From NCBI GenBank assembly GCA_964016885.1, contig OZ024752.1:44826001-44890000 (forward strand): DNA of 64,000 nt. The letters are read 5' to 3'. Numbering within the stretch: position 1 is the stretch's first letter; each line of letters opens with the position of its first letter. Under the pieces are notes generated by a model that was given only the letters and a program-made list of their open reading frames with translations, was not told where the DNA came from and did not search any database. Below, in pieces: positions 25,438 through 37,500 of the stretch. A program made the position numbers and the translations under genes. This stretch comes from Eledone cirrhosa. Lineage: Eukaryota.

Positions 25438-25503
25438 TTAAGCTGAGGGTTGTTCTGCTGAAGTTTCATTGTTCTTCAATAATGGAGCCTTTTCAGTGTT
25501 GGT
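25438..25503 (-). CDS. SLC18-like last coding exon ([21 protein letters not shown])
   Basis: Poly-T then atcag acceptor; ExxxLL dileucine motif; TAA. Confidence 0.85.
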   Translation of the reverse strand, partial: TNTEKAPLLKNNETSAEQPSA

Positions 25504-28500
25504 CTGATAAAAAAAAAAAAATAATAATAATAATACAAATACTGAAATAGTTTTTTCTAATATAGACACATCATCATCATCATCATCATCATCATTCTCA
25601 CCATCATCACCATTATCATAATTATCATCACCACCACCACAACCACCACCACCACCACCACCATCACCAGCACCACAACCACCATCACCACCACCACCAC
25701 CACCATCACCACTACCATCACCAGCACCATCACCACCACCACCACCACCACCACCACCACCACCACTACCATCACCACCACCACCACAACCACCACCACC
25801 ACCACCACCACAACCACCACCATCACCACCAGCACCATCACCATCATCATTTCAAAACTCTATAAAATCAGTATAAAAAGATAAATAGAATGGGATCTGA
25901 ACTCACCTTGTGTTCAGGAATATATCTGAGAAATATTGTAAAAGGTGTACACACCATATCTAGGATAGCAGCACCATAGACCAGACTGGTGATAGGAAGA
26001 TATAGAGATAGATAGATAGATAGATAGGTAGATATATTTATTTATTTGCCACAGGGGCACACAAGAAAAGGGGACAATACAAAGACATATGGCAGGGATT
26101 TTACATACAGTTGTGTAAAAAAAAATTTTAACATGAAAATATAATAATCAAAATCCCCAATAGAGGGGGGGGGGGCGTTACTAATGGGTTGTTTTATATC
26201 CCATAGATGGAACAACCCTCAACTTCAGGAGCGTGTTGTCCAAATGCTCCTGTCTTCCTTTTGCTCTCTTCTTCAACCTACAGGTTTATATACAGAGAAG
26301 GCCCAACCACTCGGCCATTTTCGCTTCATTCACCCACCTTTCAGTAAATTTACTGGGGTGCAGTACCTCTCCACTCTGATTCTCCTTCTAAAGTGGTACC
26401 TAAAGAAGGGAATGAGTTGTTGTCTGGAGAGAAAGGCGTCTAAATAGATAGACAGTAGTAGTAGTAGTAAATCTATTTAATAATAGTATTACTAACAATA
26501 GTATTGGTATTAAAGTCAATATATTTAGTGATAGTTTTACTAACACTAATGTTAGTATTAAAGTAAATATATTTACCTCTGGAAGCCATAAGCATACACC
26601 AGTGGTCCACCAACTAAAGGACCTGAAAATGTCAAAGGGAGAAGAATATTTAGTGAAATAACGTGTGTGTGTTTGTATGGCTGAGGTTGTGTGTTTGTGT
26701 GACAGTCTGTGTGTGTGTGTGACAGTCTGTGTGTGTGTGTGACAGTCTGTCTGTGTATGTGTGTGACAGTCTGTGTGTGTGTGACAGTCTGTGTGTGTGT
26801 GTGTATGACAGTCTCTGTGTGTGTGTGTGACAGTCTGTCTGTGTGTTTGTATGACAGTCTGTGTGTGTGTGTGACAGTCTGTCTGTGTGTGTGTGTGTGT
26901 GTGTGTGACAGTCTGTCTGTGTGTGTGTGTGTGTGTGTGACAGTCTGTATGTGTGTGAAAGTCTGTGTGTGTGACAGTCTGTGTGTGTGTGACAGTCTGT
27001 GTGTGTGTGTGTGTGTGACAGTCTGTGTGTGTGTGACAGTGTGTGTGTGTGACAGTCTGTCTGTGTGTGTATATGACAGTCTGTCTGTGTGTGTGACAGT
27101 GTGTGTGTGTGTGTGACAGTCTGTCTGTGTGTGTATATGACAGTCTGTCTGTGTGTGTGTGTGTGTGTGTGTGACAGTGTGTGTGTGTGTGTGTGTGACA
27201 GTGTGTGTGTGTGTGACAGTGTGTGGGTGTATGTGTGTGACAGTGTGTGTGTGGTGCTGGCCCTGTGTATATACAATATATTTGTGTAGGAATGTGTCCC
27301 ATGTTCCTTACCTAGACTCATCGACAGACACACGGCCATGTCAGATATGGCGTAGACGTTCCCATAGACCCCAGTGTGGCGCTTGTCAACGACTAACGCA
27401 AAGATGGGCTGCATTGACGTACTTATCATACCTGGGGAGAAAGGAAGGTACAGCTATAGATATATATATAGATATATATATAGATATATCATCATATATA
27501 TAATATATATATATATATATATATATCATATATATATATAGATATATATATATATATATATATCATCATATATATATATAGATATATATATATATATATA
27601 TATATATCATCATATATATATATATATATATATATATATATATATATATATATATATATATATATCATCATATATATATATATATATATATATATATATA
27701 TATATATATATCATCATATATATATATATATATATATATCATCATATATATATATCATCATCATTTAATGTCCATTTTCCACGCTAGCATGGGTTAGACG
27801 GGTTGGCCCTATATTGAGACAAGCCAGGTCTGATGACCTGATGACCGTGACAGGACAGGTTCTGGTGCAGGTTGCTATGATACTTACCTACGGTAAGACC
27901 AAGGAAAGATGTCACCACTAGCATCATAGTAAATGTTATTGTGTAGGCCAGCTGAAAGTATTGGAAGGAAGAGTATCAGTTACAGAAGTATTTAATCTGA
28001 TGCTTGACAAACTTTGCAGAAACTTAATCTAATAGAAAATATTATACACTTCTTTAGTTTTACACAAAATATATAATTTCATTCTTGGAACATGTTGCCT
28101 CAGCCGGCGGCCTCAGCCGAAATGGACTCAACAATTGATCTCCAAGTGGGTCTGTCGTTAATTGCCGTTGCTAAGTCCTGGATTTCAATAAATGTTGCCT
28201 AGAGTAATTCTTATTCATCCATTCATGGACTCTGAACTCCCGATGGAGTTGTAGTGGGTGCTGTCGTGTTATTTGGACATTTAAACAGAGCAGAACACAA
28301 CCCTTTTCAAACATAACCCTAGAGTAATTTATAGGAAATCAAAGATAAAAGTAGATAATATATTGATAACTTACCGACATAAGACACAACGAACTGAAGA
28401 ACAACCCAACAAGACCTTGGATCCACCTAAATATTACAAATAAATATTGGATAAATTCTTCAGCCAATCATGGAAAATGGTTTTAGTTGATTAACTCTTT

Positions 28501-34500: not shown

Positions 34501-37500
34501 TTGCTCTCAAAATAAATAACATGAAAATCCTGTAGATTCGATATTGCATATGTAGAGTAATGTAAATGGTAAAGGGTTAAAAGAAATGTCAAAACCCTTG
34601 ATATGGACTTTAATAAAACATCCCAATCTGAATAAAAACAAGTGTTTATATGTTTACCTTGTTACAATATAACCCACGAATGGATTACATACAAACTGGG
34701 CAATCCCCTTCGCTGCTATAAGATATCCATATCGACCTTGGTTATTTATGTCTTTGTTTATGTCTCGATCTTGTAACAACGGTGACGTAACATTTGGTTC
34801 TCTTGTGTCATTTACAGTGTGAGGATGTTCTAAGTCGTACAACATTTCAGGTAAGATTGGATCTGAAAAATAAAGGGAAAACACCTGAGACATCACACCT
34901 TTATTTCTGTAATGTGTGGGGTGGATGGGCATATAATAATAATAATAATTGTTTCTACTTCAGACCGTAAAGGGACGTAACTATGCTGGAAAGCATGGCG
35001 TCCGACCCTCTACTGATACTGCCAATATAATAATAATAATAATAATAATAATAATAATATTTCTACTCTCGGCACAAGGCCAGCAATGACCCCAGTGTAT
35101 TACTGGTACTTTATTTTATTGACCCCGTAAGGATAAAAGGCAAAGTTAACCTTGGCGCGATTTGAACTCAGATCATAAAGGGACGTAACTCTATGCTTCA
35201 AAGCATGGTGTCCGACTCTCTACCGATTCTGCCAATCCACCGCCCTATATTCCTATATATAATGATTGCTTATTTTAAGATTCACTTCTTAAAAATTTTC
35301 AAATGTCTACACTTCCGGTTAGCATCCGTTATATCATAACACTTATTACATTGCTTATATAAACATCCATATATTTGCCTCGTTATATAAGGTTTCATTA
35401 CATTTCACCGTAATACAGTTTATATATAATATCGTCTTATTTTAATGAATCATGGATTACTTTACTGATTACAGAAGACAGGGTAACACAGTCTCTCTTC
35501 AATTTCTGTGTATATTGTCAATTACGATGTTATTTGACATATCATATCTACATGTATATATATTTGCATATAATATTAATATACACACTACACATGCCAG
35601 CAGAAAACCACCCGAAGTGTGGTTTTCTGCTAGTAACAGTAACAACAACAACAATAACAACAACAACTTTCCTAAAAGGAAGCCAGCCAAGAGTTTACTT
35701 ACCGACCAATGTTAGCAGCAAACTGTCGTTAAATAATGAAAGACATACAATGATAATTACAATCTTTGTTGAGTTGCGGAGCCTTGACCAACAATCCTTA
35801 TTGTCCACAGGACTTTCCCTCATCACTACAATACTGGACAGCATGTGGTCATCACTGGGACCTGGTTCACTGATGTAATCCTGAAAATGGACAATAGAAA
35901 AATGTTGAAACACACTTGATTACAAAGAAACTGGTCAATGTCTGCATGAGAAGTGTTGTGTTGTGAGGCAGTGTGGTGTTGTGAAGCAGTGTGGTGTTGT
36001 GAGGCAGTGTGGTGTTGTGAAGCAGTGTGGTGTTGTGAGGCAGTGTGGTGTTGTATGGCAGTGTGGTGTTGTGAGGCAGTGTGGTGTTGTGAGGCAGTGT
36101 GGTGTTGTGAGGCAGTGTGGTGTTGTGAGGCAGTGTGGTGTTGTGAGGCAGTGTATTGTTGTATGGCAGTGTGGTGTTGTAAGTCAGTATGGTGTTGTAT
36201 GGCAGTGTGCTGTTGTATGGCAGTGTGGTGTTGTGAGGCAGTGTGGTGTTGTGAGGCAGTGTGGTGTTGTATGGCAGTGTGGTGTTGTGAGGCAGTGTGG
36301 TGTTGTGAGGCAGTGTGGTGTTGTGTGGCAGTGTGGTGTTGTAAGTCAGTGTGCTGTTGTATGGCAGTGTGGTGTTGTGAGGCAGTGTGGTGTTGTGAGG
36401 CAGTGTGGTGTTGTGAGGCAGTGTGGTGTTGTGAAGCAGTGTGGTGTTGTATGGCAGTGTGGTGTTGTGAGGCAGTGTGGTGTTGTATGGCAGTGTGGTG
36501 TTGTATGGAAGTGTGGTGTTGTATGGCAGTGTTGTAAGTCAGTGTGGTGTTGTATGGCAGTGTGGTGTTGTGAGGCAGTGTGATGTTGTGAGGCAGTGTT
36601 GTGTTGTGAGGCAGTGTGGTGTTGTATGGCAGTGTGGTGTTGTAAGTCAGTGTGGTGTTGTATGGCAGTGTGGTATTGTGAGGCAGTGTGGTGTTGTGAG
36701 GCGGTGTGGTGTTGTATGGCAGTGTGGTGTTGTGAGGCAGTGTGGTGTTGTGAGGCAGTGTTGTGTTGTGAGGCAGTGTGGTGTTGTATGGCAGTGTAGT
36801 GTTGTGAGGCAGTGTGGTGTTGTGATGCAGTGTGGTGTTGTATGGCAGTGTTGTGTTGTAAGTCAGTGTTGTGAGGCAGTGTTGTGTTGTGAGGCAGTGT
36901 GGTGTTGTATGGCAGTGTAGTGTTGTGAGGCAGTGTGGTGTTGTGATGCAGTGTGGTGTTGTATGGCAGTGTGGTGTTGTGAGACAGTGTGGTGTTGTAT
37001 GGCAGTGTTGTGTTGTGAGGCAGTGTGGTGTTGTGAGGCAGTGTGGTGTTGTGAGACAGTGTTGTGTTGTATGCAGTGTTGTGTTGTGAGGCAGTGTGGT
37101 GTTGTGAGGCAGTGTGGTGTTGTATGGCAGTGTGGTGTTGTGAGGCAGTGTGGTGTTGTGAGGCAGTGTGGTGTTGTATGGCAGTGTGGTGTTGTGAGGC
37201 AGTGTGGTGTTGTATGGCAGTGTTGTGTTGTGAGGCAGTGTGGTGTTGTAAGGCAGTGTGGTGTTGTGAGGCAGTGTGGTGTTGTATGGCAGTGTGGTGT
37301 TGTAAGGCAGTGTGGTGTTGTAAGGCAGTGTGGTGTTGTAAGGCAGTGTGGTGTTGTAAGGCAGTGTGGTGTTGTAAGTCAGTGTGGTGTTGTATGGCAG
37401 TGTGGTATTGTGAGGCAGTGTGGTGTTGTGAGGCAGTGTGGTGTTGTATGGCAGTGTGGTGTTGTGAGGCAGTGTGGTGTTGTGAGGCAGTGTGGTGTTG

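Follow-up and report, generated by a model that had tools for sequence, protein, structure and literature searches.

In the monoamine transporter VMAT2, the amine of serotonin or dopamine is salt-bridged to D399, E312 contacts the ring hydroxyl or, in a second pose, the amine (PMC11695631), and mutation of either acid abolishes transport (PMC11695631; PMC10959523). Phylogenies of the SLC18 family, in the parts available, treat only VMAT, VAChT and SLC18B (PMC10244343; 10.64898/2026.10.09.757917; 10.64898/2026.08.17.745212), one of them with a single VMAT per protostome analysed (10.64898/2026.08.17.745212). Here we describe a minus-strand gene in a 64,000-nucleotide stretch of Eledone cirrhosa DNA (GCA_964016885.1, contig OZ024752.1, positions 44,826,001 to 44,890,000; this whole stretch is called the window) whose predicted product carries L300 in place of the signature Glu of transmembrane segment (TM) 7, E312, and S387 in place of the TM10 Asp, D399. 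It represents a conserved variant of a known transporter family, apparently without earlier description: a full-text literature search, beyond whose reach most subscription papers lay, returned no account of the subfamily, and the available portions of PMC9712504, PMC9815951, PMC12669781 and bioRxiv 2022.05.26.490366 do not mention it. An earlier study noted natural Arg or His at position 318 and aligned Xenopus and Helobdella sequences, which it treated as VMAT2 (PMC10959523).

By sequence and predicted structure, the window protein is a member of the SLC18A family (MFS/DHA1, predicted 12-TM fold). The best structural match of an AlphaFold model of its Octopus bimaculoides orthologue (predicted local distance difference test, pLDDT, 85.8; predicted TM-score, pTM, 0.84) is VMAT2 (TM-score 0.92 by target, root-mean-square deviation 2.0, Z 54.6); VMAT and VAChT structures score Z 45.8-54.6, and the next-ranked structure 40.6. 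Similarity to vertebrate VMAT1 and VMAT2 (SLC18A1/A2; PDB 8WRD, 8UCJ, 8TGG) amounts to a TM-score of 0.92-0.95 by target at ~34-35% identity, and similarity to VAChT (SLC18A3; PDB 8XTW, 8ZMR) to 0.90-0.92 by target, with VAChT-like sequences 24-29% identical to the window protein. All of the closest solved and predicted neighbours are SLC18A proteins. The polyamine transporter SLC18B1/VPAT is likewise an SLC18 member with a non-monoamine cargo and appears among the feature neighbours, but it ranks below the SLC18A clusters.

To assign residue states, we aligned exon 14 and the O. bimaculoides protein (89% identical) to human VMAT2 with HMMER, using 8UCJ/8WLJ numbering, and transferred the positions to the window model. 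The alignment has no gaps through TM7-TM12, which rules out an artefact at TM7 or TM10, and neither E312 nor D399 is restored by it. A first-pass annotation, made from the letters of the window alone, had listed D33, K138, Q142, R189, R217, N305, Y341, D411, Y418, Y422, D426 and D460 as kept, and the computed alignment agrees at every one of these positions. All of the substitutions that it listed were also recovered (E312>L300, D399>S387, W318>R306, V41>D77, G307>D295, F135>I, F334>V, F429>V, Y433>M and D262>S), to which we add N34>S, S200>A, P313>A and M403>Q. Like VMAT1 and VMAT2, the window protein therefore has the complete SLC18A polar network of TM1, TM2 and TM11 (D33, K138, Q142 and D426, the last being the TM11 Asp, D414, that had been said to be retained), the motif-B Arg (R189), N305, Y341, a luminal loop with the two glycosylation sequons reported earlier (N94 and N100), and an acidic dileucine tail, which reads EKAPLL as claimed. 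It differs from them in lacking both signature acids and N34, in having new acids at V41 and G307, in the ExxPLL form of its tail, and in the VMAT aromatic gate and pocket, where F135, W318, F334, F429 and Y433 have become I, R, V, V and M and four cavity aromatics are missing. Among 27 selected cavity positions, we counted 3 acids, 3 bases and 3 aromatics in the window protein; two VMAT sequences have 4, 2 and 7.

Although the changes listed by the first-pass annotation are real, the states of W318, D262, D460 and F429 are weak evidence, because VMAT2 W318R transports serotonin at wild-type level (PMC10959523), rat D263 and D461 are dispensable (PMC5940252), and F429V is common to the portabella-like proteins described below (13/13); D460 is also not Asp in most of 11 VMAT sequences. 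Because both E312 and D399 are replaced, and mutants of either lose transport in VMAT2, VMAT-type monoamine recognition by the window protein is very unlikely, which upholds the earlier proposal in so far as its cargo is unlikely to be a monoamine carried in the manner of VMAT2.

The rebuilt site is shared by a clade of orthologous proteins from three Octopus species, Argonauta, the chiton Liolophura (two genes) and the annelids Dimorphilus, Owenia and Capitella. The window protein is 89% identical to O. sinensis XP_029634522 and O. bimaculoides XP_014778491, 72% identical to an additional clade protein, and 51-57% identical to the chiton and most annelid orthologues; no gastropod or bivalve orthologue was found among the named matches (the best 7999 candidates were scored, and many matches carry no species name). 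The first-pass annotation had suggested that the cargo might be lineage-specific, and also a search for orthologues; they exist in cephalopods, a chiton and annelids, and fixation of the same site in the latter two does not support that suggestion and rules out a cephalopod-specific novelty. In a residue table of 13 clade members, four of which are octopod proteins 83-90% identical to the window protein and hence not independent, 12 have L and one has A at position 312, 12 have S and one has T at position 399, and position 41 is D in 10, E in one and N in one (a partial model) of the 12 members with a residue there. K138, Q142, N305, Y341 and D426 are invariant (13/13), as is R189 (12/12), and the site of R306 is N, E or Q in three of the 13. 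In contrast, E312 and D399 are both kept in all 11 VMAT, 13 portabella-like and 12 VAChT-like sequences.

A phylogeny with VMAT, VAChT-like and portabella-like proteins, as had been proposed, recovers the clade as one group. We analyzed 39 of ~170 proteins, chosen for length and spread and including no SLC18B1 sequence, under LG+C20 PMSF, having specified 12 trait columns to be removed; the VMAT group takes its label from two named sequences, and the VAChT-like and portabella-like groups theirs from the tree and characteristic residue patterns. Ten clade members form one group on a long stem (support 100/100), separate from VMAT (93/89), portabella-like (99/96) and VAChT-like (100/100) groups. 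In the best tree the clade lies outside the six VMAT sequences (93/89), but a group uniting clade and VMAT is not rejected (approximately unbiased test, p-AU 0.24). We use portabella-like for proteins with Gln in place of the TM11 Asp that retain E312 and D399; the name is applied on these residues, without the Drosophila sequence. These proteins, a large group in our representative set, are likewise invertebrate orphan SLC18A paralogs in which F429V is common, but they have the reverse pattern, with Gln at 426 in 13 of 13. VAChT-like proteins share D33, K138, R189 and D426 with the window protein, unlike which they keep the E312/D399 equivalents and an aromatic cage.

Separate loci are present in the octopod genome. 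The exon matching that of canonical VMAT lies on contig C2, the one with Gln for the TM11 Asp on C5 (27.38 Mb), and an intronless VAChT-like frame on C12 (41.16 Mb), at another site on the contig of the window gene; the window gene was found once. Boundaries coincide between exon 14 and the matching exons of the C2 VMAT and C5 portabella-like genes, which is what duplication of an SLC18A gene already containing introns would produce. The earlier view, that the gene encodes a probably functional paralog within SLC18A and is separate from VMAT, VAChT and the portabella-like gene, is supported. Identity as the octopus portabella is ruled out by retention of D414, loss of E312 and D399, the separate portabella-like clade and the other exon on C5.

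Two SLC18-like sequence sets outside the clade show related changes. A second, lophotrochozoan group from Owenia, Lineus and Lingula (P0045, P0103, P0111, P0143, P0160 and P0172; support 100/99) lacks E312, D399 and D426 and carries an acid in TM1, and five of its six members show Q142>E; quick trees make it the sister clade, a position that the 39-sequence tree does not settle, and a search of the octopod genome for a TM1-acid gene of this type matched only the VAChT-like frame. A Xenopus laevis SLC18A paralog annotated as chromaffin granule amine transporter (XP_018108987, P0050) parallels the clade with Q312, R318, G399 and an ExxPIL tail, and has no TM1 acid.

The new acid in TM1 offers a possible answer to how a protein of this kind could couple transport to protons. 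By pseudo-symmetry, P42 in TM1 is the equivalent of rat P314 in TM7, and relocation of a carboxyl is tolerated in DHA1 antiporters (PMC5940252). Since these prolines are preceded by V41 and E312, respectively, V41 pairs with E312, and D77 stands opposite L300 in that register. On this alignment, one acid has moved from TM7 (E312) to the mirror-image position in TM1 (V41>D77), giving a two-acid TM1 like that of MdfA. The first-pass annotation recorded V41>D correctly but overlooked that it is a symmetric replacement of E312, by virtue of which a cationic cargo could still be carried. D295 (G307>D) is disfavoured as the substitute: on an ideal helix it points ~130-140 degrees away from the 305/308/312 face, and it is N or H in three clade members.

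E. coli MdfA (DHA1 drug/H+ antiporter; PDB 4ZP0) resembles the window protein in its two TM1 acids eight residues apart, its motif-B Arg and the absence of acids at the E312 and D399 positions. VMAT2 D33 corresponds to MdfA E26 and VAChT D398 to MdfA N331, and MdfA binds acetylcholine at D34 (PMC5138259). MAFFT, run in three modes, placed D69/D77 on MdfA E26/D34 in two and R179 on R112 and S387 on N331 in all three. MdfA is, however, bacterial, polyspecific and only 16% identical; the comparison concerns how the proteins may work. We also surveyed 145 representatives outside the clade for a TM1 acid. After 28 were dropped for gaps, 117 were scored: 96 have the TM7 acid only, six the TM1 acid only (among them two from Owenia and one each from Lineus, a nematode and amphioxus), four both and 11 neither, such that a TM1 acid occurs in 6 of 17 representatives without an acid at 312 versus 4 of 100 with one.

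The C-terminal tail bears on where the protein may act. The motif ExxPLL is a restricted consensus of TYR, TYRP1 and OCA2, in which AP-3 requires the Glu and AP-1 the Pro (PMC3418312). A [DE]xxPL[LIVM] tail was present in 9 of 13 clade members versus 1 of 42 other SLC18 sequences; of the four clade members without it, two have truncated tails and two a general dileucine only. In one member (P0018) the six motif residues are the same as those of human tyrosinase. The earlier description of the protein as vesicle-targeted thus stands as to the acidic dileucine but should be narrowed, since the motif is of the melanosomal ExxPLL type, which would favour a lysosome-related organelle.

These data lead us to propose, with roughly even confidence, that the window protein, a member of a mollusc-annelid SLC18A subfamily, exchanges protons for its cargo in acidic lysosome-related granules. 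It would fill these with a small amine or zwitterion outside the classical set and would not serve to load synaptic vesicles with monoamines. The kept D69-K128-Q132-D414 network would drive the rocker switch. D77, which probably corresponds to MdfA D34, would act as the new proton site, where a luminal proton competes or exchanges with the cargo amine; it may also partner R306 at the luminal gate. With E312 gone, R179 would be free to bind a carboxylate, and without the four cavity aromatics no cage for catechol and indole amines would be left. Such a pocket, less aromatic and balanced in charge around an unpaired R179, might accommodate a zwitterion or a non-aromatic amine of small size. The ExxPLL tail would send the protein via AP-1/AP-3 to a lysosome-related organelle.

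Several observations weigh against this proposal. One MAFFT mode shifts TM1 of MdfA by three residues, and an hhalign alignment to MdfA did not reach TM1. The co-occurrence of a TM1 acid with loss of the TM7 acid is suggestive only, because those proteins may share one origin with the clade; a single origin is not rejected (p-AU 0.63). V41 belongs to the luminal gate of VMAT2 (PMC11695631), and D77 might thus do no more than partner another gate residue; against this, R306, its presumed counterpart, is N, E or Q in the three clade members mentioned above. N34>S is fixed in the clade too, and N34T abolishes VMAT2 transport (PMC10959523). Finally, acidic dileucines also serve endocytosis and AP-2 binding (PMC3418312), and the general form occurs in 4 of 11 VMAT sequences.

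A more specific form of the granule proposal, which we think unlikely as it stands, is import of pigment precursors (3-hydroxykynurenine for ommochromes; tyrosine, DOPA or dopamine for melanin) into eye and skin pigment granules. The melanosome-type tail fits this idea, as would a charge-balanced pocket suited to an amino acid, and a squid atlas supplies a lead. In Euprymna berryi, Vmat2-2 marks dopaminergic neurons, whereas Vmat2-4 (EB48422), from an orthogroup without a fly or human member, is a marker of tyrosinase-positive pigmented cells (36% vs 4%) and of Photoreceptor_r1 (33.5% vs 3.1%; Table S4), and in those cells the authors saw no monoamine or acetylcholine presynaptic markers (PMC12240821). 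The chances that Vmat2-4 is the orthologue of the window gene are close to even; it could instead be the portabella-like gene. We searched the octopod genome for eight genes with squid ids near that of Vmat2-4. A light-sensitive cryptochrome, 59 ids away, is the one that maps to C12, 2.15 Mb from the window gene, but four map elsewhere (C1 for both JKAMP and SCCPDH, which lie together; C6 and C2 for EF1-beta/delta; C4, C3 and C2 for Maelstrom) and three were not found. The cryptochrome, of L-Cry type, is an intronless 560-codon frame at C12 47.012-47.014 Mb, and Maelstrom and SCCPDH are likewise long single frames. An open-frame scan of 100 kb on either side of the window yielded no usable synteny anchor among the frames listed. 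Also opposed to pigment import are the lack of a named gastropod or bivalve orthologue (best 7999 candidates), although these animals make pigments, and the insect precedent, in which ommochrome precursors are loaded by ABCG transporters. The searched supplement parts of two octopus atlases, one of them PMC9712504, hold no entry for the window gene; further supplements may bear on its expression. The evolutionary version of this idea is also doubtful, namely that a transmitter-transporter scaffold might have been repurposed before the mollusc-annelid split, with a flipped proton site and a melanosome-type address, into a cephalopod screening-pigment or skin-granule pump.

Other explanations change the cargo, the compartment or both. 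As first suggested, the protein might serve synaptic or dense-core vesicles and carry an unusual transmitter such as histamine, a choline ester, an amino acid or another amine. The VMAT fold, the common intron positions, retention of N305 and Y341, an acid still present at the level of E312, and the fact that AP-3 also takes part in synaptic vesicle formation are in keeping with such a role, which the tail makes a minority prospect: the ExxPL[LIV] form occurs in only 1 of 42 synaptic SLC18 sequences. Weaker is the absence of a Vmat row from the listed squid optic-lobe markers, where canonical Vmat2-2 is missing too (PMC12240821). The MdfA-like layout of acids would also fit a polyspecific organic-cation/H+ antiporter that sequesters xenobiotics or metabolic cations in lysosomes and has no dedicated cargo; three mutations turn VMAT2 into a multidrug transporter (PMC5940252), and fungal SLC18 proteins are vacuolar and confer ethidium or acriflavine resistance (10.64898/2026.10.09.757917). 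The near-invariance of cavity residues from annelids to octopus better fits a defined ligand. Multidrug pockets usually rely on aromatics, of which this one has fewer, and we judge such a function rather improbable. Least plausible is a classical monoamine carrier in which D77 fully replaces E312. VMAT2 does tolerate W318R (PMC10959523), and a neighbouring Glu partly rescues BbMAT E229Q (PMC5940252); D399, the partner of the amine salt bridge in serotonin- and dopamine-bound structures (PMC11695631), is nevertheless without a replacement, four cavity aromatics are lost, and an exon of canonical VMAT lies elsewhere in the genome.

Whatever its cargo, the subfamily is a natural test of an old question, whether a proton-coupling acid can occupy either half of the pseudo-symmetric DHA1/SLC18 fold. 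Clade proteins are named 'synaptic vesicular amine transporter-like' in the databases, and cephalopod and annelid atlases can therefore misread them as monoamine markers. If our granule proposal is right, the gene is a candidate loader of pigment or secretory granules in cephalopods. If pigment import is right, the gene would play in spiralians the part of the insect White/Scarlet route and, as squid knockouts are feasible, could be targeted by knockout to study colour and retinal screening in cephalopods.

The full gene model is 1461 nt long, encodes 486 amino acids and contains a single stop codon (Table 1). The first-pass annotation had joined 16 exons within 35880-25438 (-) into one open frame; the frame and its GT-AG introns are correct, but the count missed an upstream coding exon at 43734-43684 (-), found by tblastn with orthologue N-termini, which brings the total to 17. 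Spliced transcripts had been proposed as a check. One 974-nt contig from read run X1, at a depth of ~5, fuses 28813-28882 to 29407-29503, which is the modelled exon 10/11 junction. Within 27780-29690, X1 covers exons and repeats only, whereas a second run, X2, covers the introns continuously; this comparison spans 1.9 kb, such that 1 of 16 junctions is directly shown, and the run type is not on record. The open frame, the spliced contig and the identity to chiton and most annelid orthologues rule out a pseudogene or neutral drift. Among the orthologues, the O. vulgaris gene model CAI9721916 (P0017) lacks exon 2, and hence most of TM1, probably through an annotation error.

Table 1. Coding exons of the transporter gene in window coordinates, with VMAT2 equivalents in brackets
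Feature	Position	Strand	Content
Exon 1	43684..43734	-	Start codon 43734; 17 aa, 17/17 identical to the O. bimaculoides N-terminus; GT donor
Exon 2	35703..35880	-	N-tail and TM1; D69 (D33), codon 35727-35725; 3' end is the first base of the D77 codon
Exon 3	34658..34862	-	Remaining D77 codon bases (V41, new acid); sequons N94 and N100 in the luminal loop; TM2 with K128 and Q132
Exon 4	34253..34311	-	TM2-TM3 loop, TM3
Exon 5	34007..34090	-	TM4; R179 (R189)
Exon 6	33551..33643	-	R207 (R217); TM5
Exon 7	31806..31895	-	End of TM5, TM6
Exon 8	30506..30546	-	41 nt; end of TM6; restores the frame and agrees with orthologues
Exon 9	30164..30221	-	Central loop, start of TM7
Exon 10	29408..29503	-	TM7: N293 (N305), D295 (G307), L300 (E312; codon 29465-29463), R306 (W318)
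Exon 11	28805..28883	-	TM8: V322 (F334), Y329 (Y341)
Exon 12	28375..28426	-	TM9
Exon 13	27888..27951	-	TM9-TM10; overlapped by a piece of an X1 contig
Exon 14	27312..27431	-	TM10-TM11: S387 (D399; codon 27423-27421), Q391 (M403), D414 (D426)
Exon 15	26577..26622	-	
Exon 16	25907..25985	-	TM12
Exon 17	25438..25503	-	Cytosolic tail; ExxPLL sorting motif 25494-25477; stop codon

Elsewhere in the window, Pfam scans of ten frames gave no match. An exon resembling splicing factor 45 (RBM17) at 18529-18915 (+; E 3e-5) lies tail to tail with the transporter gene, and minus-strand frames ~80-100 kb before the window may encode a protein like condensin-2 subunit G2. The intron between exons 7 and 8 holds a long inverted repeat, spotted by eye (31040-31450; arms of ~190 bases, centre ~31230). 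Tandem arrays of a 72-base unit (~20 copies) and a 20-base G+T-rich unit occupy intronic sequence at 32090-33540 and 35950-38000, and both read runs show very high depth over a dispersed repeat at 28490-28710.

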